Assembly: GCA_934162655.1 (NCBI GenBank)
Contig: CAKPJL010000005.1
Location: 1-62,095, forward strand
DNA length: 62,095 nt
Source of the DNA: an uncultured Clostridia bacterium
GTDB taxonomy: Bacteria; Bacillota; Clostridia; TANB77; CAG-465
Reading direction: 5' to 3'
The translations under genes and the position numbers were made by a program. The notes below the pieces were generated by a model that worked only from the letters and a program-made list of their open reading frames with translations, ran no database searches and had not been told where the DNA came from. This document shows, piece after piece, positions 3,687 through 59,291 of this stretch; position 1 is the first letter of the stretch; every line of letters starts with the position of its first letter.

Positions 3687-3712
3687 TTCCACTCCTTAAT
3701 TTATTTGCTACA

Positions 3713-4726
3713 TTACTTTTTGAAACTCCTGTCAAAATTTCTATTTCTCTTACAGTAAAACCGCTCTTTTTTTAATTCTTCCAACTTCATATCTTCATCA
3801 TTTGCTCTAATAGAATAAAATAGCCTTTTTAAATAGTCATAAGGTTTTGATATATCACTAAATGCAATAGAAGTTTTAATTATATTTTTAAGTTCTCCAG
3901 GATATGGAATATTTTTAGATAAATTTAATATTTTATAAAACAATCTCTTGTTTTTTCTAAGATTAGGATAATTTGATAAGTATTTATCTAACATAAATTC
4001 TGAAATCTTTATTAAATCTTCCCTTTCATATTTATTGAAAGAAATAACGGTATCAAATCTTCTTGATAAAGCTTTATCTATAGATTTATATAAATTTGTA
4101 GTTGCTATTAATACTACATTCTTATTTAAATTATCTAATTCTTTTATTATTGATGATGTGACTCTTCCCATTTCTCTTAAATCATTTGAATTTATTCTAT
4201 CTAGTGCAATAGCATCAATTTCATCAAAAAGAATTAATGCTTTTTTAGGATTTGGTAAAGAATTTATTTCTTCAAATAGTTCTTTTATATTTTTTGAAGT
4301 TTGTCCTAATTTACTATCAATTACATAATTAAATTCTACTGAAAATAAGTCTCTATCCAATATTCGAGCGATTTGTTTTACTGTTTCAGTTTTTCCTGTT
4401 CCTGGCGCTCCTTCAAAAAGAAATTTATTCATTTTTAAATTTCCATTAATAGCATTTATAATTCCTATAGTTTCTTCTTCTAATTTTTCTGGCAAAAACA
4501 AACTATCATTTGTAATAATAACTTTTTCAAGAAAGTTTGTATTGTATCCAAATTCTTGTGGTAAGAGTACATTAGTATTAGATACTAATCCTAATATATA
4601 CTCTGATAATTGATAATCTCCATCTTTTTCAAATTCTCGAGCAATTGTTCCTGCTTGCTTGATGAAACCATCATTATCATTTTCAAAATGTAATTTTATT
4701 AAATTTAAAACATCTTTTTTTTTCAT
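3713..4726 (-). CDS. Classical AAA+ ATPase; IetA-like; C-terminus apparently frameshifted
   Basis: Walker A is GAPGTGKT and Walker B is LILFDEIDA. Sensor is ATTN and the Arg finger region is SRRFD. The last ~17 codons look like out-of-frame reading after an A7 run (3767-3773). Confidence 0.85.
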   Translation of the reverse strand: MKKKDVLNLIKLHFENDNDGFIKQAGTIAREFEKDGDYQLSEYILGLVSNTNVLLPQEFGYNTNFLEKVIITNDSLFLPEKLEEETIGIINAINGNLKMNKFLFEGAPGTGKTETVKQIARILDRDLFSVEFNYVIDSKLGQTSKNIKELFEEINSLPNPKKALILFDEIDAIALDRINSNDLREMGRVTSSIIKELDNLNKNVVLIATTNLYKSIDKALSRRFDTVISFNKYEREDLIKISEFMLDKYLSNYPNLRKNKRLFYKILNLSKNIPYPGELKNIIKTSIAFSDISKPYDYLKRLFYSIRANDEDMKLEELKKERFYCKRNRNFDRSFKK

Positions 4727-4805
4727 ACGTAAACCTCCTATTACATACTATCATTCATGTGGACAAAAATCAATATAATTGGACAAAGTTTTTTACATTT
4801 TTCTA

Positions 4806-4834
4806 TTGTTTTTTGTTAACTGCTATGTTACAAT
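4806..4834 (+). promoter_or_regulatory. Candidate sigma-A promoter for the integrase
   Basis: TTGTTT (4806-4811), 17-nt spacer, then TACAAT (4829-4834) preceded by TGT. It is embedded in a 9-bp inverted repeat, TTGTTAACT (4813-4821) and AGTTAACAA (4841-4849). Confidence 0.35.
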
Positions 4835-4899
4835 ATCAATAGTTAACAATTGTATTCTCCCCACCCATTAAGTAACTCGAAAGGAGGTGAAACAGAGTA

Positions 4900-6087
4900 A
4901 TGGCCGGGAGTATTGAAAAAAGAGGAAAAGATAGTTACAGGCTAATAGTTTGTCATGGTTTTAATTTAGATGGAAAGCCTATACGTCATACAAAAACTAT
5001 TCATGGAACTAAAGCACAAGCTAAAATTGAACTTGCAAAGTTTGTTGCTGAAGTAGAACAAGGTACAGTTATTGAAGGTAAATCAATAACATTTAAAGAG
5101 TTTACTGAAATTTGGAAAAGAGATTATGGCTCTAAAGAATTAGCACCTTCTACTTATAGAAGATATTTAGGAATGTTAGAATCTAGAATCCTACCTTATC
5201 TTGGACATTTTAAACTAGATAAGATCAAACCAACTGATATAATGAAGTTCCATGATATGTTGGATAAAGATACTCAAATAAGACGTATTAAATGTAACAA
5301 TGGCTATAGAACATTAAAACCTTTATCTCAAAAAACTATATTAGAACACCATAGACTAATTAGAGCCATGCTACACAAAGCAGTATATTGGCAATTATTA
5401 TTTACTAATCCATGTGAAAGAGTTCAAGCACCTAGAAGTAGAAAAGCAAAAAGAAAATATTATGATGATAAACAATGCAAAGTTCTTCTTTCAAACCTTA
5501 ATAAATTGTCTACAGATAACATTAAGTATAAAACAGCAATAACTTTAACATTGTTTACTGGAGTAAGGCTTGGTGAACTTATGGGATTAGAATGGTCTGA
5601 CATTGATTTCACAAACGGAATTGTTAGTATTAATAAATCAAGTCAATATTTATCTGATAAAGGTGTCTTTACAAAAACACCTAAAACAGAAAGTTCAATA
5701 AGAGATGTTGCAATTCCAGATTTTGTTGTTTCTTTGCTTGAAGAATATAAATCATGGTATGAAGATCAAAAATCAATTTACAACGAATTATGGATTAATT
5801 CAGATAGGTTATTTGTTCAGTCAGATGGTAAGCCTATGCACCCATCTACTATTAGTAAATGGTTTGTTAAGTTTGTTAAAGAAATTGGTCTACCTGTAAT
5901 TAATTTTCACGGTTTAAGGCATACAAATGCTACTTTGCTAATATCGCAAAATATAGATGTAGCAGTTGTTGCTGCAAGACTAGGTCATGCACAAATTACT
6001 ACAACATTTAATTTTTATGTGCATCCTATCATTTCCCACAATAAGAGTGCAGGAAATGTATTACAAAATTTATTAATACCAAACTAA
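4900..6087 (+). CDS. Tyrosine recombinase / phage-type integrase
   Basis: GGAGGTG RBS. Catalytic signature: GVRLGEL (Arg), HGLRHTNATL (H-x-x-R), LGHAQITTTFNFYVH (Tyr). The N-terminal arm-binding-like domain resembles Tn916-family integrases. Confidence 0.9.
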   Translation: MAGSIEKRGKDSYRLIVCHGFNLDGKPIRHTKTIHGTKAQAKIELAKFVAEVEQGTVIEGKSITFKEFTEIWKRDYGSKELAPSTYRRYLGMLESRILPYLGHFKLDKIKPTDIMKFHDMLDKDTQIRRIKCNNGYRTLKPLSQKTILEHHRLIRAMLHKAVYWQLLFTNPCERVQAPRSRKAKRKYYDDKQCKVLLSNLNKLSTDNIKYKTAITLTLFTGVRLGELMGLEWSDIDFTNGIVSINKSSQYLSDKGVFTKTPKTESSIRDVAIPDFVVSLLEEYKSWYEDQKSIYNELWINSDRLFVQSDGKPMHPSTISKWFVKFVKEIGLPVINFHGLRHTNATLLISQNIDVAVVAARLGHAQITTTFNFYVHPIISHNKSAGNVLQNLLIPN

Positions 6088-7532: not shown

Positions 7533-8285
7533 TTATTTATTCATTAATCTAAAAATCCAATCAAACATAACACTTCCAAGCCAACTACAAAAAGTAATAT
7601 ATATATCTATTATAATATCTGCTTTTACAAACATTAATATTATAGCCCCTATTACTATAAAAGGACCAAACGGAATATAACTTCCACCATCTTTTTTCTT
7701 TGTAATTAAAAGCACGCCACCTATAACAGCTCCAAATACAAAAGATACTAGTGCTATAACTATAATATACTTTAATCCAAAAAATAGTCCAAGTGAAGCC
7801 ATTAACTTAACGTCTCCAAATCCCATTCCCTCTTTTTTAAATATCAATAGTGCTAGGAGTCCAAGTAACCAAAAAATTAGTCCACCGGCAAGTGCCCCAA
7901 GTAAATAAGACCACCATGAGGACAAATTTACCAGTAAATTTACCACTCCACAAAGTGAAATTATTATATGGACTTCATCTGGAATCAACTGAAATCTATA
8001 ATCTATGGAAAACACAAGCATTAGAGCAAATATTATTATCATATAAAAATATATGCTATACACATTTCCAATAAAATATACTAAGCTATTATATAAAACT
8101 AACAATATTAAAGAATATTTAAAATCAATTTTAAAGTCACTATCAAGCCCATTAAAGAACTCCTTATATGTTATTTCCTCTTTTACTACTGGGGGCATTT
8201 TTTTTACTAATTGTCCAAGCATTTGACCAAGCACAATAGCAACAACACTTACAATTAAATATGGCAATATAACGCTAAAACTCAC
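7533..8285 (-). CDS. A24-family prepilin peptidase (no Cys-rich methyltransferase N-domain)
   Basis: Polytopic membrane protein with both catalytic Asp motifs (SIDYRFQLIPDE and GMGFGDVKLM). GTG start overlaps the upstream stop. Confidence 0.8.
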   Translation of the reverse strand: MSFSVILPYLIVSVVAIVLGQMLGQLVKKMPPVVKEEITYKEFFNGLDSDFKIDFKYSLILLVLYNSLVYFIGNVYSIYFYMIIIFALMLVFSIDYRFQLIPDEVHIIISLCGVVNLLVNLSSWWSYLLGALAGGLIFWLLGLLALLIFKKEGMGFGDVKLMASLGLFFGLKYIIVIALVSFVFGAVIGGVLLITKKKDGGSYIPFGPFIVIGAIILMFVKADIIIDIYITFCSWLGSVMFDWIFRLMNK

Positions 8286-13044: not shown

Positions 13045-14373
13045 TTGGAAAAAATTTATCATAAATATAGCAAATATAATAGTTCCCAAATATTAACTAT
13101 ATATGTCGAATATCCAGACAGTTATGAATTTTCACTAGATTTTCAAACATTAAAAAAGAATGCAAAATCTCTTGCAAATAAGATTAGAGAATATGCTTTT
13201 AAAAATATTGGAACGGTAAGTAATCAAACAGCCCTTCTAGTTCTCAACGGAGTTGTTGTAGGAACTATTTTGCTTACTTCATTAAATTCCAAATTACAAT
13301 CTAGGCAAATAACAAACTTAACAAATAAGAATGAAGGAGAAATGTCTGTATCTACAATTAATAACATAGATAATGAAATCCAAGAAATGACTTATACTAA
13401 ACAACTAGAAGAAGAAAAAAATGATATTGTAAATACATCTATCAATCCAAATGCCACAAATAAAACGCAAACTAAGAATTCAAATACCACAAACACAAAT
13501 TCAAAAACACAAAAACCAAATGCTAGTAGTTCTAATTCCAACTCTCAAAACACAAATTCATCTTCTACTCCCCCACAAGAAACAAATGAAAAACAAGTTT
13601 CAGTAAGGTTAGCATCTGGTCAAGTTTTATCTATATCACTTGAAGACTATGTTGTAGGCGTGGTGGCTTCTGAAATGCCAGCCTCATTTAATATAGAAGC
13701 ACTAAAAGCTCAATCGGTAGCAGCAAGAACTTATGCATTAAAGAGATCTAATACGACACTTAGTGCCACAACATCAGATCAAGTTTATAAAACAGTGGAT
13801 CAGCTAAAGGCAATGTGGGGAAATTCATTTAACACATATTATAACAAAGTAAAAAACGCAGTAAATGCTACAAGAGGAAAGTATATTACCTATAATGGAA
13901 CATATATAGATGCCTTATATTTTTCTACAAGCAATGGAAAAACAGAAGATCCAGTATATGTCTGGGGAAAAAGCTATCCTTATTTGAAAAGTGTGGATAG
14001 TCCCTATGATACTTCTCTTCGTTCTTATTCTTATACTACATCTATTCCACTAGCAACTTTCAATAAAAAATTAGGTGTAAATGTATCAGATAATTCTCAG
14101 ATTAATATATTAAGTAAAACCACAGGAAATAGAATAAACCAGATCTCAATTGGTGATAAAACTTTTACAGGAGTAAAGGTTAGAACACTCTTAGGTCTGC
14201 GTTCAGCAGATTTTGACATATCAATTTCCAACAGTACCGTTACAATTTCTACACATGGTTTCGGACATGGTTGTGGAATGAGCCAATATGGTGCAAATGA
14301 AATGGCTAAGCAAGGAAAAAGTTATATTGAGATACTAAAGTATTATTATACTAATGTAGAAATAAAAGGTTAG
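13045..14373 (+). CDS. SpoIID/LytB-domain protein (amidase enhancer family)
   Basis: TTG start with AGGTGA RBS. Motifs ALKAQSVAARTYAL, YFSTSNGKTE and GHGCGMSQYGA. Asn/Ser/Thr-rich linker. Confidence 0.85.
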   Translation: MEKIYHKYSKYNSSQILTIYVEYPDSYEFSLDFQTLKKNAKSLANKIREYAFKNIGTVSNQTALLVLNGVVVGTILLTSLNSKLQSRQITNLTNKNEGEMSVSTINNIDNEIQEMTYTKQLEEEKNDIVNTSINPNATNKTQTKNSNTTNTNSKTQKPNASSSNSNSQNTNSSSTPPQETNEKQVSVRLASGQVLSISLEDYVVGVVASEMPASFNIEALKAQSVAARTYALKRSNTTLSATTSDQVYKTVDQLKAMWGNSFNTYYNKVKNAVNATRGKYITYNGTYIDALYFSTSNGKTEDPVYVWGKSYPYLKSVDSPYDTSLRSYSYTTSIPLATFNKKLGVNVSDNSQINILSKTTGNRINQISIGDKTFTGVKVRTLLGLRSADFDISISNSTVTISTHGFGHGCGMSQYGANEMAKQGKSYIEILKYYYTNVEIKG

Positions 14374-23481: not shown

Positions 23482-23578
23482 AATATCACCCTTTCTTGTT
23501 TTATATTATATCACACTTACAAAATATTTCACTACTTTTTTTAATAAATAGAAAAAAAGCGAAAATAAAATCGCTTTT

Positions 23579-24781
23579 TTACTGATTTGTACTTTGTTTT
23601 GTAGACTCAACTATCCTCATATTTGTACTATAATCATTGTTAACTTGAACTTTTACTCTAATAGAATCTTTTACTAACATATCTTTACTTTCATAAACTA
23701 TATTCCCATATATATCTTTTCTTATTTTTTTTGTAAATTCTATATTTGCTATCAAACTTTCCTTATTTTTAGTAGTTTTATATTCACCTATAAAATCACC
23801 TAAAGAATATATAGCATAAACATGTAACTGTTCTTCATCTTTTTTTATTAAATCTTCCACTTCTTCTTGAGGTGCCTTTGTACCTGTACCAAGTACCACA
23901 TTTACTCCAGCGTCAAATAACATCTCTGTTCCTTGCTTTTGAGCACTACTTACAATCTCTTCATTGTCATTTTTCACATTTAAATATGCAATTATAAAAT
24001 CAACATCTTGGGATTTTAAATAATCTATATCTGTTTTTAAGTCGTCTTCATTTAAAACATCCAAAACATATTCATTACTTTTACCCATAAGTACATTAGA
24101 ATTTCTTGTATATGAAAGTATACCAAGTTTTATATTGTTTTTTTCAACTATAATTGGTTTACCATCATCTAAACTGCTATTTAATCCAACTTGATTTAAT
24201 TTAGCCTCTTTTATATTTTTTATAGTATCTAGTGCTCCAGCCTCACCTTTATCAAGGCTATGATATGAAGCCGTTGCAACATCAGATACATTTAACTTCT
24301 TTAGCAACTGAAGTATTTCAAGTGGTGCATTATAACTGTCCGATTTGGTATATCCATATTTACTACCAGCAACCGGTGTAGATAAAGAAGATACAACTAC
24401 ATCATAATCTTTTAATTTTTCTTGTATATCCTCTGTACCAGAAATAAAATCATATCCATTTGATATTTTAGAACCATTTAATATATTTTGTGTTATGTAT
24501 ATATCTCCTAGTCCAGCAAATTTCAAGCTATATTCTTCTTGTGTAATTTTATTTTTATTTATTAAAAATTTATTTGAAACAAAATTGTACAATTTGGCCT
24601 CTTCTTTATCTATTTTTCCAAACGTATAATAAGTTAACTTTATTACCTCAAATATCATAAATATTGAAAGTAGTAAAAATATAATCATAAATAACACATG
24701 ACTTTTTTTTAACTTATTTACTTTGACACTATCATTAATATTTTCAATATTATCTTGACAATTTAAATTACCTTTTCTCAT
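23579..24781 (-). CDS. CapA-family (PGA_cap, metallophosphatase-fold) membrane-anchored protein
   Basis: N-terminal TM helix. FAGLGDIY and other motifs resemble poly-gamma-glutamate synthesis CapA. Confidence 0.65.
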   Translation of the reverse strand: MRKGNLNCQDNIENINDSVKVNKLKKSHVLFMIIFLLLSIFMIFEVIKLTYYTFGKIDKEEAKLYNFVSNKFLINKNKITQEEYSLKFAGLGDIYITQNILNGSKISNGYDFISGTEDIQEKLKDYDVVVSSLSTPVAGSKYGYTKSDSYNAPLEILQLLKKLNVSDVATASYHSLDKGEAGALDTIKNIKEAKLNQVGLNSSLDDGKPIIVEKNNIKLGILSYTRNSNVLMGKSNEYVLDVLNEDDLKTDIDYLKSQDVDFIIAYLNVKNDNEEIVSSAQKQGTEMLFDAGVNVVLGTGTKAPQEEVEDLIKKDEEQLHVYAIYSLGDFIGEYKTTKNKESLIANIEFTKKIRKDIYGNIVYESKDMLVKDSIRVKVQVNNDYSTNMRIVESTKQSTNQ

Positions 24782-24860: not shown

Positions 24861-25649
24861 TTATAAACTTTTGCAAATATCAAATTGCATCGCACTAAGC
24901 TTTGTTTTAGTGTTACTTACCATTTTTGTGATATTTTGAATCAAATTGTTTTCATTTTCACACTCTCTATCATTTTGTACTGCTTTTGATTTTCTTGATA
25001 CTTCTTTGGATATATCATTCATCATATCTATATCAAATTTTTTGTATGCTTCGTGCCATTTTTCGCATATGCTCTTAAAACTTTCTACTTTTTTATTAAA
25101 TTTTTCAAAACCTTGTTTTAATTTATCTATAAAATCTTTACTTGAAATAAAATTTTTTATTGAGCTAGTCAAAGCTTTTCCAATATCAGAGAATATATTA
25201 TTTTTTAAATACTTATTACAAACTATATCAATCCCTGCACTAAGCATTTTGGTAAGTCCACCATTTAGTGCAACATTTTGTAAATTTTTTATATCTTTTA
25301 AAATTGTTACAGGCATTTTCAAAAATTCTAGTCCCTCTTTTATACTACTTAAAACAGCAGTTTTTATTATATGTTTAAAATCATTACTTTTTAGTGCCTC
25401 TTTCACATCAAGAGCAACTTCTTTTACTCCATCTGAAATAGGCAATGCCTTTATTGCATAATTTATACCCTTATCTAATATATCCTCTACTATTTTAGTA
25501 AATTGCTTAACATTTTTTACTTCATCTACATTTAACTCATTTTGTAAATCCACACTATTATCAACTACCACTTCATGACTATCTATTTTTTCAGCTTCCT
25601 GTATTAATCTATTTGCAGTTAATTCTGCTTTACTTAATTCTAATTCCAT
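24861..25649 (-). CDS. Hypothetical all-helical protein, last gene of the secretion-like operon
   Basis: GGAGGAA RBS. Starts 3 nt after the upstream stop. No TM segment and no recognised motif. Confidence 0.5.
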   Translation of the reverse strand: MELELSKAELTANRLIQEAEKIDSHEVVVDNSVDLQNELNVDEVKNVKQFTKIVEDILDKGINYAIKALPISDGVKEVALDVKEALKSNDFKHIIKTAVLSSIKEGLEFLKMPVTILKDIKNLQNVALNGGLTKMLSAGIDIVCNKYLKNNIFSDIGKALTSSIKNFISSKDFIDKLKQGFEKFNKKVESFKSICEKWHEAYKKFDIDMMNDISKEVSRKSKAVQNDRECENENNLIQNITKMVSNTKTKLSAMQFDICKSL

Positions 25650-25652
25650 AAC

Positions 25653-26561
25653 TTATTCCTCCATTTCAGACATCTTTGAAAATATTATAAATATTACTAT
25701 ATAGAATAGAATATCTATATTAACTATTAATTTTCCAATAAAACTTTGTGTTATTATTAACTTGTATTCTGGGTTTGCAAATACAAATCCAAATAACATA
25801 TAAACATTTATGACTATAAGAACTAATAACACAAGTCTTGTTCCCAAACTCTTTTCTTTTTCATCTTCCCTTTGATTACCTAATTTTACAATTATTTTTA
25901 AGTATTTATCAATTAGGGCAGTAAAATCTCCTCCGTTCATGTAACAATACTGCAAAGCAGTTATAAACTCACTTATTTTAGCTATTCCTATATCAAACTT
26001 TAATTCCTCAAAAGCATCAAATATTTTTACTCCGTTTTCAACTTTATTATTAAATTTTAATATATATGGTTCTAATTCTTTACTAGGATTTGCCTTTCTA
26101 AAAGCAATGACTATATCATTTTCTGTCTTTGTATAATTTTTTAAAGTGGCAAGATATGTTGGTAGTTCACTCATAATTTTTTGCTTAGTACGTATCTTTA
26201 AAAATTTTATAATTTGATAGGGTAACACGAACATATATAACGATAAAATAACTGAAGATGATATAATTTGTAAAACTTTATATGAGCTAATAAACATTAT
26301 AAAAGACAAAACTAATGAGATAAAAATAATAATTACAGGAGAAAATTTAAATTTTCCAACTTTATAATTTAGATTTGTTAAAATAAACTTCTTTATACTA
26401 TAAAAAGAACTTTTATTATATAATTTTTCTTTAAAATTCAAATTCTTAACTTTATATATATATTTACTTGATTCTTTAAACTTTATTATAATCATAACTA
26501 AACAATATATAATAGTAATTAATAGTATACTAAATAATATACTAAAAATATTATTCTTCAT
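25653..26561 (-). CDS. T2SSF-domain platform protein (TadB/TadC/GspF-like)
   Basis: One N-terminal TM, a second TM, a cytoplasmic helical domain (LPTYLATL...DAFEEL...FITALQ...GGDF), then C-terminal TMs. Overlaps the upstream gene. Confidence 0.75.
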   Translation of the reverse strand: MKNNIFSILFSILLITIIYCLVMIIIKFKESSKYIYKVKNLNFKEKLYNKSSFYSIKKFILTNLNYKVGKFKFSPVIIIFISLVLSFIMFISSYKVLQIISSSVILSLYMFVLPYQIIKFLKIRTKQKIMSELPTYLATLKNYTKTENDIVIAFRKANPSKELEPYILKFNNKVENGVKIFDAFEELKFDIGIAKISEFITALQYCYMNGGDFTALIDKYLKIIVKLGNQREDEKEKSLGTRLVLLVLIVINVYMLFGFVFANPEYKLIITQSFIGKLIVNIDILFYIVIFIIFSKMSEMEE

Positions 26562-27738
26562 CCCTTTTACCTCTCTTATATTCTAAATTTATAGTTATTT
26601 TTTCTTTATCACTATCGTAGCTAACACTTGCAATTTCTTCTACCTTATAATTTTCCATATATACTAAATAATCAATACTGTTTGCAAGTAAAACTTTTAT
26701 AAAATCTTCTTTATAATCAGAGTATCTAACATCTCTTTTTATTAATGTTATAAGTCTATCAATTGTATTTTTAGAACTATCTGAATGTACTGTTCCCATG
26801 CCAATATGTCCTGTGGATATAGCGTCAAGAAATACAGCGGTTTCTGCACCTTTTAATTCTCCTACAACAAGTACATCATTTGACATTACAAGGCAGTGTC
26901 TTAACAATTTTTCTAGATTAATCTTTTTTGAAATGTCTCTATTTTCTAAGATTTCTCTTTCTATAACATTTCTATCTTTAATATATAATTCTGCTGTTTC
27001 CTCACTAATTGTAATTGCAAATTCTTCAGGAATTTTATATATCATTTCTCTTAAAAGGGTCGTTTTACCACTTCCTCCTCTTCCAGCCAAAATAACATTT
27101 TTCCCTTTGCTAACTATTTTACTAATTATTTTATATGATTTTGCATCAAGCATTTCATCATCTAAATACAAAGTTTCAAGGCTTACAGAGGAATTTAACC
27201 TATGTATCCTTATAACTAAACTAGGTGATATAACATTAACTGGAGAAATTCCTGCTTCTATTCTTAAATTATATTTTTTATCACTTACAACCACTATTGG
27301 AGTTTCAAAGTTTATACTAGCATTATTTTTTAAGATTATATATCGTATATAATCAATAAATTCTTCCTCTGATTTAAATTTTTCTTCTACTTTTTTCCAC
27401 TTTCCAAGTGATTTTACATAAATTAAATCATATTTAACAACCCTAATATCTGTTACATTTGGCATAGTAATATATTTATGCAAAATGTCATACCCAAATA
27501 ATTTTGAAAACAATACTTGAATAATTTGATTTATTTCAATTTCAGATTTTATATAATATTTTGTACATATATATTCTTCTAATTTATTTTTTAATGCATC
27601 CTTTAGCTCATCTTTTAAATAATCAATATAATTATTTATAACATACTTTTGAAGCTCTGCAACTATGGAATCTCTATCTTGTTTTATATTACCTATCTTA
27701 TCATCTTGATTTTGATTAACAAATGGATTAACAATCAT
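26551..27738 (-). CDS. CpaF/TadA/VirB11-family secretion ATPase
   Basis: ITDIRVV N-domain. Walker A is LAGRGGSGKTTLL. Asp/Glu boxes, VVGELKGAE, and His box TGHIGMGTVHS. Confidence 0.85.
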   Translation of the reverse strand: MIVNPFVNQNQDDKIGNIKQDRDSIVAELQKYVINNYIDYLKDELKDALKNKLEEYICTKYYIKSEIEINQIIQVLFSKLFGYDILHKYITMPNVTDIRVVKYDLIYVKSLGKWKKVEEKFKSEEEFIDYIRYIILKNNASINFETPIVVVSDKKYNLRIEAGISPVNVISPSLVIRIHRLNSSVSLETLYLDDEMLDAKSYKIISKIVSKGKNVILAGRGGSGKTTLLREMIYKIPEEFAITISEETAELYIKDRNVIEREILENRDISKKINLEKLLRHCLVMSNDVLVVGELKGAETAVFLDAISTGHIGMGTVHSDSSKNTIDRLITLIKRDVRYSDYKEDFIKVLLANSIDYLVYMENYKVEEIASVSYDSDKEKITINLEYKRGKRDEE

Positions 27739-28951
27739 TTCTTATCACCATCACTTTTTTTAAGAGATTATACTTAGACATTAGTCCTTTACTTTTATCA
27801 ATATTTCCAATATTTAGCCAATTTAAAATCTTATTTATATTAAAATTAATATTTATATCATTTATTTCTCCATTTATATATGATTCTACCTGATCACTAT
27901 AATTTATAGTTGCAACAATATTATAATCTGGTATCAAACTTTGTATTTGTGATATGTCAAGTGAACTTTTTTTATATTTATTTACTATTATAGCTATTTT
28001 TTCTTTTGGTATATTTAGGAGTTTATTAATTAAATCTAAATATTTAATAGCTTGTCTTATACTTATATAATTAGCATTTAATATGAAAAAGATTTTTGTA
28101 GAAGCTAACAAACTATAAGGTACCACATCTAAAAATGGTGATGAGGGCAAATCTATTAACATATAATCATAATTTTTAAATACACTAAAATATATTTTTT
28201 CATAATATTTGTTTGATAGCTTGTTTTGACATTCATATAAACTAACATTGCTGGTAAGGTAAGATAAATTTTTATTTGACTTATCTTTTATTAAATAATC
28301 TTTTACTACATCTAAAATTTCATCTCTTTTATCCACACTATCAACAATTTTTGATAACATATTACTCTCACCTTGTATATTTGCCAAAATATCTATACTG
28401 GGATTTTGTATATCCATATCAAGTAATGCAATATTTATGTTTAAAATTTCACTCAATTTCTTACTAATAATAGTTGATATAAAGGATTTTCCAGCTCCGC
28501 TTGTACCATATATTGATATTGTTTCTTTTGGTATTATAATATTTTTACTTACATTATAGGTACAATTAACATTGTCTTGTATATCTTTTTTATATATTAT
28601 CCTTTGTTTACTTTCTATCAACTCTTTTATTTTCTCTATATCTACAACATTTCCTTCTATAATATCAAATATACCATATGAAAATAAAAATCTTCTTTTT
28701 TCTTCATCCAGTTTATTTACTATTACAATTACCCTTACCCTTCCAGATATAGATCTAATATATTCTTCAAAGCTCACATCTCCTGCAAGGTCCTCTTTTG
28801 TTATTAAAAAATTTTCTTCCTGGAGATTAATATTATTTATATATTCAATAGCATCGTCTCTGCTATTAAAATCATATAAATACACTTTATCACCATAAAT
28901 TTCTTTTAATTTAATACTTATTTGCTCGTTTGAAAGTGCAGTAATTATCAT
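27728..28951 (-). CDS. TadZ/CpaE-like protein: receiver-like N-domain plus ParA/MinD-fold ATPase
   Basis: P-loop is IYGTSGAGKSFIS. LLDMD and MLIDLPS are Walker-B-like. The domain order matches TadZ. Confidence 0.65.
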   Translation of the reverse strand: MIITALSNEQISIKLKEIYGDKVYLYDFNSRDDAIEYINNINLQEENFLITKEDLAGDVSFEEYIRSISGRVRVIVIVNKLDEEKRRFLFSYGIFDIIEGNVVDIEKIKELIESKQRIIYKKDIQDNVNCTYNVSKNIIIPKETISIYGTSGAGKSFISTIISKKLSEILNINIALLDMDIQNPSIDILANIQGESNMLSKIVDSVDKRDEILDVVKDYLIKDKSNKNLSYLTSNVSLYECQNKLSNKYYEKIYFSVFKNYDYMLIDLPSSPFLDVVPYSLLASTKIFFILNANYISIRQAIKYLDLINKLLNIPKEKIAIIVNKYKKSSLDISQIQSLIPDYNIVATINYSDQVESYINGEINDININFNINKILNWLNIGNIDKSKGLMSKYNLLKKVMVIRNDC

Positions 28952-28952
28952 T

Positions 28953-30683
28953 TTATTCCCCCTTTAACAACTCTTCTTCAAATTTACTTGCTGTAATTTT
29001 TATTTTTACATTATTATCATTAAAACTAAGGTACATATATCCTTTACTTAACTTAGAGATATTTATAATATCTGACTTATTTATAACACTTACATTTTTT
29101 AGTATTTCTAAATCTGAATAATCCATTTTAAAAAATAGCTTAAATTGTGAATTATTTAATATGCTCTTAGCATACTCAATATTATCTCCTAAAAATAAAT
29201 CTGACATATCTTGAGTAATAAGCACAATAGATGCAGATTTTTTTCTTATGGTTTTATACATAAGAAATATTAAATCAGAGATATTATTTTTAAACGTGTT
29301 TTTAATATACTTCCATGCCTCATCAATATATATAATCGTTTTCCTGTCTTTATAAAAATCAAATGATATATTTTGATGGTTTATAATGTATCTTATAATT
29401 ATTGCCGATGTCTTTAAATCATAACATTTTAAATCAATTGCCTTTAAAGAATTTTGTGTATCAAAATTAGTAACTTTGCAAAAACATGGTATGAATTGCA
29501 ATATTTTCTGATTAAATTTTCTTTTTATAGTATTTTGTTTTATATTATTATACACATCATAAAGACATGGAAAACATTCATCGTTTACTATTTCATTTTT
29601 TAAATAAACCTTACTCTCATTAAAGTCTTTTTTATATATACAGTTAAGACTTCCATCTATACCTTTATTTTTATATGATACTTTTATAGCTTCCTCTATT
29701 ATTGCTATCTCATTTTCTTTTTCTATCCCAATAATTAAAACAATAAAATTAAGTATCATATCTATCTTTTGTACCAAATAATTATCACCATATAAGTTTA
29801 TATCCTCTTGATAAATTTGCATTATATTATAATAATATTTACATTTAGAGCTAGAAGTAAGATATATGCCTTGCAGCTTATTGATTAAATTTTCATATTC
29901 ACTTTCTGGATCAAATATAAGCTGATATTTACCATTCAAATAATGTTTCAATATACATAACTTAGTATAAAAAGATTTACCAGAGCCACTACTTCCAAAT
30001 ATACACATATTTGCATTTATATACTTTTTATCAAATATGTCTAAAATACATAATTTATTTTCATCTATATTTCCTATAACAATTCCGTTTTTATCTAATA
30101 ATGATTTTGTGTAAAAAGGAAATATGTTTGCAAGACTACCACTTGTCAAAAATCTAAATGTAGTATCTTTTTTATCTATATCTATATATGGAAGTGATTT
30201 TATATACGAATTTAAATGTCTAAAATTTGAAATACTTGTTATAATTTGTTTAGAATATAATTTGACTTGAAAACTTTTGATTAAACTATATAAACTATTT
30301 AAATCTTCATGAAAAAAAGTTATACTAAAAGACGTTTTGAAAATTTCTTCATTATTTACTTGAATGTCTTTCCTTAAAGCTTTAGCATCGCACCTTGATA
30401 ATTCTAAAACATCCATATCTATCTGACTTGACTTTACTAAACTGAACTCTGAATTTAAATTTGAAATTTGATAGCTAAGTTTTTTTAATATATTCATGGT
30501 GTTTTGTTTTTCACATTCTATCGCAATGTCTATTACATATTCTTTTGGAATACACTCTATTAATTCCAAAAATCCTAATTCTTTTGGATACTCCTTAATA
30601 TATACCGTTGATATATATTTATTATCAAGCAAAATATATTTATATGATGTATCCTCTATAACATTTGGATATATATCTTCCAT
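28953..30683 (-). CDS. VirB4/TraC-type (AAA_10/DUF87-like) conjugation-family ATPase, C-terminal part
   Basis: Walker A is IFGSSGSGKSFYTK, followed by IFDPESEYENL. Walker B is IIYIDEAWKYI. Also LITQD and NSQFKLFF. The pattern matches Gram-positive VirB4 homologues (TcpF / Tn916 Orf16 type). Confidence 0.75.
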   Translation of the reverse strand: MEDIYPNVIEDTSYKYILLDNKYISTVYIKEYPKELGFLELIECIPKEYVIDIAIECEKQNTMNILKKLSYQISNLNSEFSLVKSSQIDMDVLELSRCDAKALRKDIQVNNEEIFKTSFSITFFHEDLNSLYSLIKSFQVKLYSKQIITSISNFRHLNSYIKSLPYIDIDKKDTTFRFLTSGSLANIFPFYTKSLLDKNGIVIGNIDENKLCILDIFDKKYINANMCIFGSSGSGKSFYTKLCILKHYLNGKYQLIFDPESEYENLINKLQGIYLTSSSKCKYYYNIMQIYQEDINLYGDNYLVQKIDMILNFIVLIIGIEKENEIAIIEEAIKVSYKNKGIDGSLNCIYKKDFNESKVYLKNEIVNDECFPCLYDVYNNIKQNTIKRKFNQKILQFIPCFCKVTNFDTQNSLKAIDLKCYDLKTSAIIIRYIINHQNISFDFYKDRKTIIYIDEAWKYIKNTFKNNISDLIFLMYKTIRKKSASIVLITQDMSDLFLGDNIEYAKSILNNSQFKLFFKMDYSDLEILKNVSVINKSDIINISKLSKGYMYLSFNDNNVKIKITASKFEEELLKGE

Positions 30684-30691
30684 ATTTCCTC

Positions 30692-31207
30692 CTATATCTT
30701 ATTTATGCTTTCATACATTAAATTATATATCTCGTTTTTAGATAACGATTTAATAATTAAATTAACACTTCTAAGCCTATTAATTCCCTCTTCTATTTCT
30801 TTTTTACAATCTTTGCCTTTACATATAAAACATATATATATTTTGGATGTATATATTGATTGACTTGATATCTTTTCTCTTAAATCCTGTATATACTTAT
30901 CGTATATATCTAAATTTTTGATTTTATCACTACAATTTACTACATGTTTTGAAATATACTCCTCTTCATTAAATTTAAAATTCCTTACAATTACTTTAAA
31001 CTTTGTATTAATTCCTTTTAAAAATTCTACATAGCAATTCAAAATGTTATATATTTTTTCATCTGAAAAATTTAATATACTTATAGGAACTACCTCATAT
31101 ATATACTGTTTTTGAAGACCTTCCTTATTTCTTATACACACATAACCCTCTTCTATTGATTCAAGTGAATATATAAGTTTTATATTTTTGTATTTACCTG
31201 TAAACAT
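30692..31207 (-). CDS. VirB4 N-terminal-domain-like protein (split from the ATPase)
   Basis: AGGAGG RBS before the ATG at 31207. The pattern IEEGYVCIRNKEG...YIYEVVPISILNFSDEK...FLKGINTKFKVIV resembles the start of Gram-positive VirB4 proteins. Its TAG stop is embedded in the RBS of the next gene. Confidence 0.45.
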   Translation of the reverse strand: MFTGKYKNIKLIYSLESIEEGYVCIRNKEGLQKQYIYEVVPISILNFSDEKIYNILNCYVEFLKGINTKFKVIVRNFKFNEEEYISKHVVNCSDKIKNLDIYDKYIQDLREKISSQSIYTSKIYICFICKGKDCKKEIEEGINRLRSVNLIIKSLSKNEIYNLMYESINKI

Positions 31208-31479
31208 AACCCTCCTAAAAAACAATATTTTAATTTACTATTAACATAATTTATAATACTTGAAATCTTTTCGAAACGAAAATGAAAAAATAATTTAAAA
31301 TAAAGATTAATGATTCGAACTTTTAACAATATAACATTTTTAATAGTTATTGTCAATATAATCATTGCAACTTTTCATCGCAAATTTCGACAAAAAAATT
31401 TTTACACTCCATTTATTATCACATTTTTTCTTTAGTTGCATATAATTAATTATAAATATAAATTAAGGAGATGATGTAT

Positions 31480-31671
31480 ATGAATAATAATCAAAACGAA
31501 CCAATGAATAATATGTTAAACTCAAAACTTTTTGATATGTTAAAAACAATAGACAAAAATAAATTAGAACAGGTAAGTAAAATGGTCCAGAATATGTCAA
31601 AAGAAGATCTAAATAATTTAGTTTCAATGTTAAATAAAAATCAACAGTCAAATGCCAATAATAATAATTAA
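31480..31671 (+). CDS. Small Asn/Gln-rich helical protein
   Basis: AAGGAG RBS. First gene of a three-gene coupled set divergent from the secretion-like operon. Confidence 0.45.
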   Translation: MNNNQNEPMNNMLNSKLFDMLKTIDKNKLEQVSKMVQNMSKEDLNNLVSMLNKNQQSNANNNN

Positions 31672-31673
31672 AT

Positions 31674-32075
31674 ATGAATGATAATACTAATCAATTATTT
31701 GATCTAATTTCAAATATTCAGGCCAAACTAAATAGTAATGATGATAATAATTCTTCCCCAAATGATTCTTCTAGCCAAAGCACAAAAAACAACGAAACCT
31801 CAAGTAATACAAATGGAAAAAATGAAGAAAATAATTCTAGTTGCGATAATACAAATGGATTTGATTTTTCTAACATAGATATTAACACCATTTTAAAAAT
31901 GCAAGGAATACTTTCTAGTTTTAATAAAAATTCTCCCAAAAAAAATTTACTTTACTCACTAAAGCCATTTCTAAATCAATCAAGACAAGATAAACTTGGT
32001 GAATACATAACTATACTCTCTATTATAGATGCAATAGATATATTTGGTAAAAAAGGTAGTGATAAAAATGTTTAA
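31674..32075 (+). CDS. Asn/Ser-rich protein with conserved-looking C-terminal helical segment
   Basis: Starts 2 nt after the previous stop. The low-complexity N-half is followed by ILKMQGILSSF...LLYSLKPFLNQSRQDKL. Confidence 0.45.
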   Translation: MNDNTNQLFDLISNIQAKLNSNDDNNSSPNDSSSQSTKNNETSSNTNGKNEENNSSCDNTNGFDFSNIDINTILKMQGILSSFNKNSPKKNLLYSLKPFLNQSRQDKLGEYITILSIIDAIDIFGKKGSDKNV

Positions 32076-32496
32076 TTATAATCCATACTTAAACTATTAT
32101 AAAAATAATCCTAACTATTATAGATATAATAATCCTACCTTCTTTAACATGCATAACATGAATAATTTTAATCAAAATAAAAATGCAAAAATGTACAACT
32201 TTAATAATGATTATAATAAACAATATAATAATACTAAAAAAGAGGAAAATGAAAGTAATTTTGAAAACTCTACTAAAAACACTAATGAAGAAAAAACTAG
32301 ATTTAGTATAGGAAATTTTTCTATTACAGATAGAGGAATAAATGCCTTCGGTTACCATCTAAATTTTGATGATTTAATAATAATACTTTTAATTTTATTT
32401 TTATATTTTGAAACAGACACTGATTTATCTGTAATTATTGTTTTAGGACTAATGCTATTTAATATTAATTTTTCAACTATAAAAAATATATTCTAG
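32068..32496 (+). CDS. Asn/Tyr-rich protein with C-terminal hydrophobic segments
   Basis: The ATG at 32068 overlaps the previous stop (ATGTTTAA). The N-half is YNPYLNYYKNNPNYYRYNNP. Two hydrophobic helices lie at the C-terminus. Confidence 0.45.
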   Translation: MFNYNPYLNYYKNNPNYYRYNNPTFFNMHNMNNFNQNKNAKMYNFNNDYNKQYNNTKKEENESNFENSTKNTNEEKTRFSIGNFSITDRGINAFGYHLNFDDLIIILLILFLYFETDTDLSVIIVLGLMLFNINFSTIKNIF

Positions 32497-32520
32497 TATC
32501 AAACACTAATACTAGAATAT
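32488..32520. terminator. Bidirectional terminator between convergent genes
   Basis: ATATTCTAGTAT pairs with ATACTAGAATAT in a 12-bp stem. Confidence 0.5.
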
Positions 32521-32524
32521 ATTT

Positions 32525-32728
32525 TTATGATTTTGTTATAGTAAATTTATCATGCTTATTTCCACTTATACCATACTTTCTATAATACCTTACTAATAAT
32601 TCATCTATCGCGACACTTGTTTCATAGATTTCACAATACGGCCTATTGTCGCGTATTTGATTTTCCATTTTTTCTTTTAATAAATCAATTTGTCTTATCA
32701 ACAAAACAACCATCTCCTTTTTATACAT
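32525..32728 (-). CDS. Spo0E-like aspartyl-phosphate phosphatase family protein
   Basis: 67-aa helical hairpin. The IDLLKEKM...SVAIDELLVRYY pattern resembles the Spo0E family. Confidence 0.5.
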   Translation of the reverse strand: MYKKEMVVLLIRQIDLLKEKMENQIRDNRPYCEIYETSVAIDELLVRYYRKYGISGNKHDKFTITKS

Positions 32729-50893: not shown

Positions 50894-51784
50894 CTACATT
50901 TTTATATTAAGTTTATTTAATATACTATCTAATCCTTCTTCATCATTATATTCAATAACAATTTTCCCATTTTTAGAACTAGAATTTAACTTAACATTAT
51001 ATCCAAAAAATTCTTTTAATTTGGTTTCTATATTCTTATAGTATACAGCATTAGGGCATTTTTTTTCTGGTTTTCTTACATACTCCTCTGAGCCATACAC
51101 TATTTTTTCTGCTTCCCTTACACTCAACTTTTTATCTATTATTTTTTGTGCAACTTCTAATTGCCTTGTTTTACTATCAAGTGCTAGAAGTGTTCTAGCA
51201 TGTCCTTCTGAAAGTTTGCCATCTAGTACATAATCAATAATTTTGTCTTGTAATTTCAAAAGTCTAACAGTGTTAGATACAGTTGAGACATTTTTTCCTG
51301 TAAGCTTTGCAACTTCTGTTGCAGAATACCCATCGATATCCATAAGTTCTTTTATAGCACGAGCTACCTCAATTACATTTAAATCTTCTCTTTGAATATT
51401 CTCTATTAATGCAACCTGTTTTTTCTTTGTATCAGTATAATCTTTTACAATTGCTGGTATAGTTTTAAGCCCTGCAAGTTTAGCTGCACGCCATCTTCTC
51501 TCACCTGCAACTATTGTATATCCATTTTTAGATTTTACTACAAGAATTGGTTGTATAACACCTTGCTCTTTTATAGAATCAGCAAGTTCTTGCAATTTTT
51601 CTTCATCAAATACTTTTCTTGGTTGTTCTACATCTGGCTCTACATCTACTATTTTTAATTCAATAACACTACCTAACTCTTTATTTTTTTCTTTTAATGG
51701 TTTTAATTCTGCTTTTACTTCTTCAGTATCCTCACCAAAAAAAGCATTAAGTCCTCTACCTAAACCTTTTTGAGTCTTTGCCAT
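50894..51784 (-). CDS. parB: ParB/Spo0J chromosome partitioning protein
   Basis: GLGRGLNAFF, IQPILV, AGERRWRAAKLAG and an HTH. The ATG at 51784 with AAGGAAG RBS is preferred. Confidence 0.9.
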   Translation of the reverse strand: MAKTQKGLGRGLNAFFGEDTEEVKAELKPLKEKNKELGSVIELKIVDVEPDVEQPRKVFDEEKLQELADSIKEQGVIQPILVVKSKNGYTIVAGERRWRAAKLAGLKTIPAIVKDYTDTKKKQVALIENIQREDLNVIEVARAIKELMDIDGYSATEVAKLTGKNVSTVSNTVRLLKLQDKIIDYVLDGKLSEGHARTLLALDSKTRQLEVAQKIIDKKLSVREAEKIVYGSEEYVRKPEKKCPNAVYYKNIETKLKEFFGYNVKLNSSSKNGKIVIEYNDEEGLDSILNKLNIKM

Positions 51785-51791
51785 AGATTTT

Positions 51792-52562
51792 TTACACTTC
51801 CTTTTCATTTAATTTTATTAATTCTTTTGCTAATTTTTTATAAGTTTCTGCCCCTTTTGAGTCAGCATCATATAAATTTATTGGTAATGCGTGTGAAGGT
51901 GCCTCACTAAGCCTTATATTTCTTGGTATTACAGTTTGAAAAACCTTATTACCAAAAAATCTCTCAACTTCATCTGCAACTTGTTCTGATAGATTAGTTC
52001 TAGAATCATACATAGTAAGAAGTACACCTTCTATAACTAAATCTTTATTTAAATGTTTTTGAACAAGTTTAATAGTATTAACTAGTTGTCCAAGTCCTTC
52101 TAGTGCATAATACTCACATTGAATAGGAACAAGAACACTATCAGAAGCCGTAAAAGAATTAAGTGTAATAAGTCCTAAAGATGGTGGACAATCTATAAAT
52201 ATATAATCATATTCATCTTTTATAAGGTCTACTGCATCTTTTAATCTAGTTTCCCTTGAAACCATAGATACAAGTTCAATTTCAGCACCAGCAAGATTTA
52301 TATTTGCTGGACAGACATCTAATTTTTTAATCATAGTATGACAAATAGTGTCCTTTATTTCTATATCATCTATCAATACATTATATATAGATTTTTTATC
52401 CTTTGCATCCACCCCAAGTCCACTTGTAGCGTTTCCTTGTGGATCTATATCAATAAGAAGTACCTTTTTTCCTTTTTCAGCTACACAAGCACTAAGATTA
52501 ACGGCTGTGGTAGTTTTACCCACTCCTCCTTTTTGATTTGCTATCGCTATTACTTTTGCCAT
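51792..52562 (-). CDS. soj: ParA/Soj ATPase
   Basis: Deviant Walker A NQKGGVGKTTT, plus DIDPQGN and IDCPPSLG. Confidence 0.95.
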   Translation of the reverse strand: MAKVIAIANQKGGVGKTTTAVNLSACVAEKGKKVLLIDIDPQGNATSGLGVDAKDKKSIYNVLIDDIEIKDTICHTMIKKLDVCPANINLAGAEIELVSMVSRETRLKDAVDLIKDEYDYIFIDCPPSLGLITLNSFTASDSVLVPIQCEYYALEGLGQLVNTIKLVQKHLNKDLVIEGVLLTMYDSRTNLSEQVADEVERFFGNKVFQTVIPRNIRLSEAPSHALPINLYDADSKGAETYKKLAKELIKLNEKEV

Positions 52563-52640
52563 ATTTTCACCCCATTAAATTTGATTATACTACAAAATTA
52601 TATAAAAAAAAAGAGAAAAACAAAAAATTATATGTTTTCT

Positions 52641-52823
52641 CTAATTATTATTTTTAGATTTGTTATATACATCTTGCATAACATCTAAAAAAGTTTCTTC
52701 TGACTTTTTTAAAATGTCTTTATTGGTTCTATTCTCCTTATTTTTATTACTTGACATGCAACAAGCATTACTAGATATATTTATTATTTTTCCTACTTTT
52801 TTTATATCATTATCATAATTCAT
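52641..52823 (-). CDS. Hypothetical small protein
   Basis: GGGAGGA RBS before the ATG at 52823. No motif recognised. Confidence 0.4.
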   Translation of the reverse strand: MNYDNDIKKVGKIINISSNACCMSSNKNKENRTNKDILKKSEETFLDVMQDVYNKSKNNN

Positions 52824-52911
52824 ATATACATCCTCCCACAAATTATCACAAGAAAATTAAATTTACTATCTATATTAATATTATACTATTTATTTCTAAA
52901 AAAATCCACTT

Positions 52912-53637: not shown

Positions 53638-53661
53638 CTATTTTCCTTTCAAGATATATAT

Positions 53662-55545: not shown

Positions 55546-55553
55546 AATAATTC

Positions 55554-56930: not shown

Positions 56931-56977
56931 AACTTTATTTTCCTTTCTTTAAAAAAGTCAGCGTTGCTGACTCTTAA

Positions 56978-58472: not shown

Positions 58473-58486
58473 AAATTACCTCATTT

Positions 58487-58738
58487 CTATTTTAATTTAT
58501 CTACTCCACCTTTTGAAAATGGATTACATCTAAGTATTCTAAAAATACCTAAAACATTCCCTTTTATTATACCATATTTGTCAACTGCTTGTTTAGTATA
58601 TTCAGAACAAGTAGGATAGTATATACATCTATTTCCTAATGAATTAGATATATGTTTTTGATATAAGTTTATTAAGAATATCTCTAATTTACTTGGAATT
58701 TTTAATATAAATAATATCAAATTACACACTTTTTTCAT
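58487..58738 (-). CDS. yidD: Membrane protein insertion efficiency factor YidD
   Basis: CIYYPTCSEYTKQAV...RILRCNPF. Confidence 0.85.
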   Translation of the reverse strand: MKKVCNLILFILKIPSKLEIFLINLYQKHISNSLGNRCIYYPTCSEYTKQAVDKYGIIKGNVLGIFRILRCNPFSKGGVDKLK

Positions 58739-59084: not shown

Positions 59085-59153
59085 TTTCTATCCCCTACTC
59101 ATATTTAGAATAAAAAGTGAGTATGAAAAACATACCCACTTTCCTAAGTAGTT

Positions 59154-59291
59154 CTAAGCACTAATTACTTTTCTACCTTTTGCTCTTCTAGCCTTTAAAA
59201 CATTTCTACCAGAAGCAGAAGACATTCTTGCTCTAAATCCGTGTACTTTTTTTCTTTGTGCTTTACTTGGATTACTTGTTGATATTTTCAT
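59154..59291 (-). CDS. rpmH: 50S ribosomal protein L34 (not in the supplied ORF track, 45 aa)
   Basis: Hand translation: [45 protein letters not shown]. Confidence 0.9.

Follow-up and report, generated by a model that had tools for sequence, protein, structure and literature searches.

The hallmark ATPase of conjugation and type IV secretion is VirB4. What does such an ATPase do on a chromosome where no secretion channel is encoded beside it? This question is raised by a six-gene operon (24861-31207, minus strand) of an uncultured Clostridia bacterium, located on a 62,095-nucleotide stretch of DNA (GenBank assembly GCA_934162655.1, contig CAKPJL010000005.1) that is referred to as the window throughout. 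The operon encodes a VirB4 ATPase in two pieces, a ParA-like protein, a secretion-type ATPase (T2SSE), a membrane platform protein (T2SSF) and an all-helical soluble protein, here called H. A survey of related loci showed that the conserved unit consists of the N-terminal piece of VirB4 (N-domain), the VirB4 ATPase and H, and that the six-gene set is an accessorised version of this unit. On the evidence of sequence comparison, and with slightly better than even confidence, we consider the locus to be a domesticated, vertically inherited ATPase module that derives from a type IV secretion system (T4SS), lies close to the replication origin (oriC) and is kept for a non-conjugative host function.

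VirB4 is encoded by two collinear genes

The initial annotation had described six closely packed minus-strand genes, and their coordinates and junctions as well as all quoted motifs (GSSGSGKS, IFDPESEY, IDEAW, TQD, GTSGAGKS, GRGGSGKTT, GELKG and TGH..GTVHS) were confirmed in the operon and its proteins. The first gene encodes the N-domain protein (171 amino acids, 30692-31207); it starts with an ATG at 31207 that is preceded by the ribosome-binding site AGGAGGG. It is followed by the genes for the VirB4-family ATPase (576 amino acids, 28953-30683), the ParA-like protein (407 amino acids, 27728-28951), T2SSE (395 amino acids, 26551-27738), T2SSF (302 amino acids, 25653-26561) and H (262 amino acids, 24861-25649), all on the minus strand. 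In 5' to 3' direction, the first three genes are separated by 8 nt and 1 nt, the next two junctions are overlaps of 11 nt each, and a gap of 3 nt precedes H. About 120 nt 5' of the N-domain gene, a sigma-70-type promoter-like site is found on the minus strand (31328..31356, TTGACA-17-TATATT with a TG element), which agrees with the consensus at 11 of 12 positions. Of 74 related loci, 32 had near-consensus sites 5' of the N-domain gene, counted without a shuffled control.

The 576-residue ATPase matched the NCBIfam models VirB4_plasma (9e-52) and CD1110, a family of conjugative VirB4 proteins (2e-44); the alignment begins only at about profile position 191, and relative to full-length VirB4 of Gram-positive bacteria ~190 residues are missing at the N-terminus. 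Its PDB match was the VirB4 C-terminal domain 4AG5 (1.6e-22), and over its full length it shares 23-26% identity with CD1110-family VirB4s of Gram-positive conjugative plasmids. Its motifs, Walker A and Walker B among them, are invariant across the family. The prior assignment of this ATPase to the VirB4 family was thereby upheld.

The N-domain protein alone gave no Pfam or NCBIfam match, Pfam scans of 45 family members were likewise empty, and the family profile had no match in the PDB; a single-sequence search of a protein collection returned 3 close matches only. It is predicted to be soluble, as a hydrophobic segment (19-mer) was detected in none of the 45 members. When the N-domain was fused in silico to the 576-residue ATPase, the VirB4_plasma score rose to 191.7 bits, compared with 175.8 bits for the ATPase alone, 166.8 bits with a shuffled and 159.2 bits with a reversed N-terminal part, and the alignment reached back to profile position 100. 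Four other family members were fused in the same way; gains over shuffled controls ranged from +16 to +71 bits in the five members, and the fusions of these other members aligned from positions 1-5 of the CD1110 model. Two fusions from the sister clade described below scored 305-309 bits on the CD1110 model, for which the family cut-off is 325. Furthermore, the hidden Markov model (HMM) of the N-domain family matched the N-terminus of an unsplit plasmid VirB4, a PrgI-VirB4 fusion of Vescimonas (6e-21), and adjoined the ATPase match (6e-82) on its upstream side; hhalign of the N-domain profile against unsplit plasmid VirB4 gave a probability of 97%. Similarity to TrsD of pSK41 was marginal (hhalign probability 33-37%, E ~4e-4, 110 columns) and came with no NCBIfam or Pfam match. 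Fusion tests, N-domain HMM and hhalign therefore establish that the split of VirB4, as first proposed from the window alone, is real and collinear, and by sequence the 171-residue protein is the detached N-terminal (TrsD-like) subdomain of VirB4.

N-domain, VirB4 and H form the conserved unit

One genome per species was scanned, which yielded 80 loci, all from metagenome-assembled genomes (MAGs) of uncultured Clostridia, and all open reading frames (ORFs) of these loci were clustered. About 18 further species-level genomes have the six-gene order, and a smaller core is present in 69-78 of the 80 loci: the N-domain and VirB4 genes adjoin in 74-78 loci, and H lies next to VirB4 in 69. Given this recurrence, the arrangement is not due to chance. 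The ParA-like gene was found in ~62 loci and is missing from ~14 loci of the sister clade, while T2SSE and T2SSF, which are always present or absent together, occur in only ~18 of the 80. An HMM search of the intervals in loci without the ParA-like gene detected no remnant of it, and the minimal form is therefore N-domain, VirB4 and H. The initial annotation had treated the six-gene set as the unit, which did not survive this survey: T2SSE and T2SSF are accessory and the ParA-like gene is partly lost.

H accompanies the split VirB4 as an obligate partner. It had been described as an all-helical protein of unassigned type, and this description holds. Its AlphaFold2 (AF2) model is all-helical (mean predicted local distance difference test score, pLDDT, 80; predicted template modelling score 0.70). 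Foldseek searches of the PDB and BFVD with this model gave no structural match; no Pfam match was obtained in 47 members, the PDB profile search was empty, and hhalign against all proteins of the T4SS regions of four plasmids (including pVpro, see below) gave none either. A hydrophobic 19-mer occurs in no member. The family comprises 431 clusters at 50% identity (E <= 1e-3), nearly all of them stand-alone proteins of 215-265 residues. According to the model and these searches, H is an orphan fold with no relatives outside its own family.

In three independent metagenomic clusters at 50% identity (P0275, P0259 and P0267) H is fused directly to a receiver-like domain without an ATPase domain. 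Fusions of H to a pyrophosphatase (P0240) and to a canonical receiver (P0241) were found on tiny contigs with an identical junction and were treated as assembly chimeras. In a further protein (P0348) the N-terminal half of H is joined to Cna-B/SpaA-like repeats with an LPRTG end; this may be an assembly chimera.

The module is chromosomal, origin-proximal and under purifying selection

The 80 loci fall into two fixed genomic contexts. In the clade of the window, the module is preceded on its upstream side by genes for LMWPc, RpiB, a WecA/MraY-like transferase, YqeY, two M16 peptidases, a Spo0E-like protein and three small divergent genes, and is followed by CapA, YlbF, a Zn-peptidase-like protein, rpsB and tsf. 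In the sister clade it has gyrB on one side and gyrA on the other, and yidC, rnpA, a DnaA-like gene, dnaN and recF lie upstream of it. The window itself carries an origin region (50894-61044) with parB, soj, gidB, gidA, trmE, jag, yidC, yidD, rnpA and rpmH, all on the minus strand, and dnaA on the plus strand (59620-61044), ~28 kb from the module; the minimum of the cumulative GC skew is near 59 kb. These origin genes and the skew minimum, together with the gyrB-gyrA site of the sister clade, therefore place the module close to the origin in both clades. The ~1 kb that is left after dnaA is too short for dnaN, recF, gyrB and gyrA, and the next ORF there is on the minus strand (61296-62039). 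With conserved synteny and no integrase within ~19 kb of the operon (the nearest, at 4900-6087, is part of a separate island described below), the location in the core chromosome that had been proposed was corroborated.

A simple neighbour-joining (NJ) tree of VirB4, with three plasmid VirB4s as outgroups, united the chromosomal VirB4s in one clade against the plasmid proteins and split them according to the two contexts. Within the window clade, the deepest branches carry T2SSE and T2SSF, and at least 3-4 losses of the two genes followed; the whole sister clade lacks them.

dN/dS was taken only from pairs with at least ~85% protein identity, since dS was saturated in divergent pairs (~25% GC, which is also the base composition of the window). 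In such close pairs, values were 0.03-0.11 for VirB4, 0.09-0.27 for the N-domain and 0.07-0.20 for H; the pair L006/L054 gave 0.12 for T2SSE, 0.28 for T2SSF and 0.05 for the ParA-like gene. As far as these sequence comparisons tell, all module genes are under purifying selection. In the gyrB-gyrA clade (loci L030-L080) the ParA-like gene reached ~0.3-0.5, compared with 0.03-0.1 for VirB4 in the same pairs (e.g. L043/L046 and L038/L069). This higher ratio fits the repeated loss of the ParA-like gene in that clade and suggests that it is becoming dispensable there.

The accessory genes encode Tad-like proteins

The third gene of the operon had been annotated as a TadZ-like fusion of a receiver-like domain and a ParA/MinD-type ATPase. 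The ATPase part (residues ~140-385) was borne out by CbiA/ParA Pfam matches and by the match of the family profile to MinD 4V03 over the C-terminal ~245 residues (2e-20). The receiver-like part (residues ~1-138) matched receiver domains of the PDB weakly (2e-4 to 5e-3; best 3B2N, 2e-4, and 3A0U, 3e-3), and conservation does not extend to the acidic phospho-acceptor pocket. Pfam gave neither a TadZ_N nor a Response_reg match, and TadZ 3FKQ was not among the PDB matches listed; a single-sequence AF2 model had a pLDDT of 40 and was not used. The sequence may thus at best be said to fit a TadZ-like architecture, with weak support.

T2SSE is a hexameric ATPase of the CpaF/TadA/VirB11 family (TIGR02788, 8e-37; TIGR03819, 3e-33; T2SSE Pfam, 3e-25), with CpaF as its best PDB match (6e-23). 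VirB11 models score it as well as the CpaF/TadA ones, and its nearest plasmid homologues are Tad-type ATPases of Clostridia (~31% identity). T2SSF is a single-domain, polytopic TadB/TadC-like protein with ~5 hydrophobic segments and the sole membrane protein of the operon. In the window it stays below the Pfam cut-off for PF00482 (E 4.5e-4), and this family was matched by 18 of 18 T2SSF orthologues (best E 3.4e-7). Both assignments, a CpaF/VirB11-family ATPase and a single T2SSF platform, agree with what had been read from the window.

Secretion components are absent from the surroundings of the module

Among the Pfam-annotated genes of nearly the whole 62-kb window no relaxase, type IV coupling protein (T4CP), PrgI/VirB3, VirB6, VirB8 or hydrolase was found, MOBscan and CONJScan not having been run. 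The conserved neighbours of the ~80 loci (within 10 kb on each side) included no pilin, VirB3, VirB6, VirB8, hydrolase or T4CP, and a relaxase was likewise missing from the genes conserved beside the module in the 80 loci. No small conserved ORF with a hydrophobic segment at its N-terminus, as expected of a pilin, was found in or beside the operon. The lack of pilin, coupling protein, relaxase, VirB6 and hydrolase in or next to the operon, noted at the outset, was therefore reproduced across its relatives.

Comparison with known systems

With the VirB4s of Gram-positive conjugative systems (CD1110 family; PrgJ, TcpF, ConE and TrsE) the module shares homology over the whole ATPase and conserved Walker motifs. 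In contrast to these, its VirB4 is encoded by two ORFs, is chromosomal, fixed near oriC and vertically inherited, and is paired with H. Monoderm conjugative T4SSs (MPF_FATA/FA) further differ in having the PrgI/VirB3, VirB6, VirB8, hydrolase, T4CP and relaxase genes that are not found near the module, and the plasmids examined (L086-L088, L093 and L098) do show channel or accessory genes beside virB4.

TrsD is a separate homologue of the VirB4 N-terminus encoded upstream of TrsE in pGO1/pSK41, and such genes are widespread beside virB4 in Patescibacteria (PMC12102498). The module resembles both in encoding a small VirB4-N-terminus homologue directly upstream of VirB4. The T4SSs of Patescibacteria are chromosomal, mostly relaxase-less and often located beside dnaA, dnaN, rnpA and rpmH, with the coupling-protein gene often far from virB4 (PMC12102498); the module is equally chromosomal, without a nearby relaxase and near dnaA/oriC. 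Unlike the module, the T4SSs of Patescibacteria retain VirB3, VirB6 and VirB2-like pilins close to virB4; H and the Tad-like genes belong to the Clostridia lineage of the module only and not to the TrsD/TrsE or Patescibacteria systems.

The order of the ParA-like, T2SSE and T2SSF genes corresponds to that of Tad/Flp loci (TadZ/CpaE - TadA/CpaF - TadB - TadC - Flp - TadV). However, the module has one T2SSF where Tad/Flp loci, including those of Clostridia plasmids, have two (TadB and TadC), its locus is without Flp pilin, CpaB/SAF protein and prepilin peptidase, and most lineages do without its Tad-like genes, which sit between VirB4 and H. For the uncultured gut Clostridia order TANB77, a conserved Tad cluster that includes pilins was described (PMC11680825); the composition and protein sizes of this cluster differ from those of the module, and it is a different locus.

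One of the plasmid ATPases nearest to T2SSE is encoded on pVpro of Vallitalea pronyensis (NZ_CP058650, record 15612-43433; L093/L095), in a hybrid of T4SS and Tad-like genes known from annotation. Following VirD4, which lies further upstream, this region encodes PrgI, a 253-residue ORF, a VirB4-like ATPase (599 amino acids, N-terminally short), a 562-residue ORF, an M23 peptidase, a receiver-like protein, a ParA-like protein, T2SSE, a single T2SSF, small ORFs and a SAF/CpaB-like protein. The family HMMs of the module matched its VirB4-like (2e-39), receiver-like (3e-9), ParA-like (8e-10), T2SSE (3e-66) and T2SSF (4e-29) proteins, and hhalign gave 93% for the receiver-like protein. VirB4, receiver-like, ParA-like, T2SSE and a single T2SSF thus follow in the same order as in the module, inside a conjugation region, and the combination of VirB4, TadZ-like, CpaF-like and T2SSF proteins is found beyond this chromosome as well. 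In contrast to the module, pVpro has PrgI, VirD4, the inserted 562-residue ORF and M23 hydrolase, pilin-sized small ORFs and the SAF/CpaB-like protein; its receiver-like and ParA-like parts are separate genes, and it has no H homologue. pVpro joins VirB4 and Tad-like genes with accessory genes that are absent from the chromosome, and the chromosomal operon looks reduced. Judging by these sequence relationships, its ancestor was likely a monoderm conjugative T4SS that also carried Tad-like genes, of the pVpro kind, and the parts specific to conjugation would since have been lost. We found no paper describing a T4SS and Tad-like hybrid of this kind. Nor was a description of the module of split VirB4 and H found in the literature, in line with the original view that the operon is undescribed.

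In Streptomyces, the VirB4-like protein CmdB of the cmdABCDEF operon is needed for normal septation and chromosome segregation in sporulation (PMC2782261). Like the module, cmd is chromosomal and conserved and encodes a VirB4-like ATPase; its role is non-conjugative and developmental. It differs in that CmdB is accompanied by five membrane proteins, comes from a different phylum and has no H, TadZ-like or CpaF-like partner; the likeness is not meant as a claim of orthology. The archaeal Ced/Ted systems, to which the operon had initially been compared, are reportedly defined by a VirB6-like polytopic membrane protein (CedA/TedA) together with VirB2-like pilins. Neither a VirB6-like membrane protein nor VirB2-like pilins were found in or beside the operon, and the analogy fails on these defining components. 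In Ced/Ted, too, a chromosomal VirB4-like ATPase serves a purpose other than plasmid conjugation (PMC9905601).

Proposed function of the module

A non-conjugative host function is favoured since VirB4 and H persist where all membrane components have been lost. By analogy with the relaxase-less, oriC-proximal T4SSs of Patescibacteria, this function would be expected to be constitutive rather than one in plasmid transfer. The N-terminal subdomain may re-join the ATPase to give the usual VirB4 hexamer, for which H might be an adaptor or a substrate. The receiver-like domain could contact H, as is suggested by the fusions of the two in P0275, P0259 and P0267. TadZ positions the machinery of Tad pili, and the MinD-like ATPase might in the same manner position or gate the complex at the membrane. 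Where present, the pair of CpaF-like ATPase and T2SSF would form a membrane-embedded arm, with type-IV-pilin-like proteins made elsewhere as its possible substrates. Conceivable physiological outputs are a surface filament, the translocation of macromolecules or a cell-cycle task.

Several points weigh against this interpretation. All genomes are MAGs, and the survey covered the surroundings of the loci, so that VirB6, VirB3, T4CP or pilin genes elsewhere in the genomes lie outside it. The direction from mobile element to chromosome was deduced from an NJ tree with three outgroups, and the 253-residue ORF of pVpro, considered as a split N-domain, gave no detectable profile match. The receiver-like assignment is based on marginal E-values, and the promoter-like site is a match to the consensus in very AT-rich DNA. 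As H is without recognisable relatives, to cast it as adaptor or substrate is guesswork.

A bolder proposal is that the three-gene core is a new machine, i.e. a VirB4 without a membrane channel of its own that would work as a housekeeping, origin-linked motor in this widespread lineage of gut bacteria, with H as its dedicated partner or substrate. We put this forward tentatively, as one possibility that falls well short of being probable.

It is rather unlikely that the operon belongs to a complete envelope machine for pilus-assisted transfer or uptake of DNA or protein, in which VirB4 and the CpaF-like ATPase would together power filament assembly and substrate transfer, and whose other parts (pilins, a VirB6/VirB3-like channel and perhaps a coupling protein) would be encoded elsewhere in the genome. 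Three secretion-type ATPases are indeed translationally coupled with a T2SSF platform, and pVpro shows that VirB4 and Tad-like parts can share one transfer apparatus. A gene for an A24-family type IV prepilin peptidase is present in the same window (7533-8285, minus strand), ~17 kb from the operon, and because of it type-IV-pilin-like substrates, none of which were found in the window, are probably encoded somewhere in the genome. The separate pilus cluster with pilins in TANB77 (PMC11680825) and the often distant coupling-protein gene of Patescibacteria (PMC12102498) would also be compatible with dispersed components. However, VirB4 and H were kept through at least 3-4 losses of T2SSE/T2SSF and in a sister clade that has neither, and no pilin, VirB3, VirB6, VirB8, hydrolase or T4CP gene accompanies the module within 10 kb on either side in the ~80 loci. 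Moreover, membrane segments are confined to T2SSF, so that the minimal three-gene module contains no membrane protein at all. On this last count the initial idea of an envelope-spanning machine is not supported.

Less probable again is a cytoplasmic or peripheral-membrane device of the cell cycle, in which the core would be a CmdB-like motor for handling or positioning DNA in segregation, septation or sporulation. The constant oriC-proximal site, even between gyrB and gyrA, the solubility of all core proteins and a MinD/ParA-type partner in addition to the canonical Soj/Spo0J would suit such a device, as would the Spo0E-like and YlbF neighbours, the SpoIID gene in the window and the Streptomyces Cmd precedent (PMC2782261). 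On the other hand, no DNA-binding domain was found, and the link to replication and segregation genes is one of adjacency only. An origin-proximal site may reflect gene dosage, as has been argued for Patescibacteria (PMC12102498). The five membrane proteins that accompany CmdB are absent here, and the MinD-like gene is dispensable in many lineages, where it is under relaxed selection (dN/dS ~0.4-0.5).

A decaying, non-functional remnant of an integrated conjugative element would account for a gene set drastically smaller than that of the pVpro type and for the repeated loss of components, and a VirB4 in two ORFs could resemble a frameshift. Yet the two-ORF arrangement is kept across genomes in which VirB4 identity falls as low as ~30%, catalytic motifs are intact, dN/dS in close pairs stays far below 1 for all the genes, the position is fixed in 80 species-level genomes and H forms 431 clusters, which makes this explanation highly improbable. 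Hardly any weight is given to a role in defence against phages or plasmids, with a HerA/VirB4-like ATPase at its centre. HerA/FtsK-like ATPases are used by many defence systems, but the weak PADLOC matches of the VirB4 ATPase to mad8 (1e-9) and HerA models (7e-6) reflect generic P-loop similarity, no effector such as a nuclease, Sir2 or TIR was found, the core position is universally conserved and fixed rather than part of a variable defence island, and of the other five proteins T2SSE matched in weak P-loop stretches and the remaining four not at all. A phage origin was rejected, as PHROGs, like PADLOC, gave generic P-loop matches only and a search of IMG/VR returned no relatives of the module.

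Neighbouring genes

The CapA/PGA_cap gene (23579-24781, minus strand) encodes a membrane-anchored protein and follows H after a gap of 79 nt. A terminator-like site was not found at the 3' end of H or between the two genes; the first one on the minus strand follows the CapA gene (23553-23580). The CapA gene has its own promoter-like site, is present in 14 loci, mostly those bearing T2SSE/T2SSF, and may be co-transcribed with the operon.

On the other side, three small genes for Asn-rich proteins (66, 133 and 150 amino acids; 31471-32728) diverge from the operon. They gave no Pfam or PHROGs match, and the 150-residue protein has two C-terminal hydrophobic segments. A Spo0E-like gene of 67 codons (PF09388, E 0.003) adjoins this trio; trio and Spo0E-like gene are kept beside the module in the window clade and absent from the gyrB-gyrA clade. 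The window further contains genes for a SpoIID-domain protein (13045-14373, plus strand) and an AbrB/MazE-like protein. Going by sequence matches, the SpoIID, AbrB/MazE-like, Spo0E-like and YlbF genes give a hint that the organism may sporulate.

The nearest integrase belongs to a small island (1449-6087) composed of a subtilase S8 peptidase (1449-3692), an AAA ATPase (3713-4726) and the tyrosine integrase (4900-6087). The pair of AAA ATPase and S8 peptidase also occurs in a different, mobile-looking context (L092) and may be a defence or mobile cassette.

Implications

Precedents exist for a split VirB4, for a relaxase-less chromosomal T4SS derivative near oriC and for the linkage of VirB4 with Tad-like genes, and the reduced core is of more interest than the six-gene form. 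Few cases of a VirB4 captured by its host have been described, namely the archaeal Ced/Ted systems, the T4SSs of Patescibacteria and Cmd of Streptomyces. The module would add a case in abundant uncultured gut Clostridia that is stripped further than those, with a plasmid hybrid of Gram-positive T4SS and Tad-like genes of the pVpro type as its likely source. The reduction series of six, four and three genes offers a natural way to ask what VirB4 minimally needs and does, and H defines a sizeable new protein family. If the proposal of a three-gene core machine is true, no VirB4 before this one would have been seen at work outside a T4SS, and H would be a new fold. The value of the locus lies in a well-delimited target rather than in a solved mechanism, and the main question that it poses for these Clostridia is what a VirB4 does without a channel.

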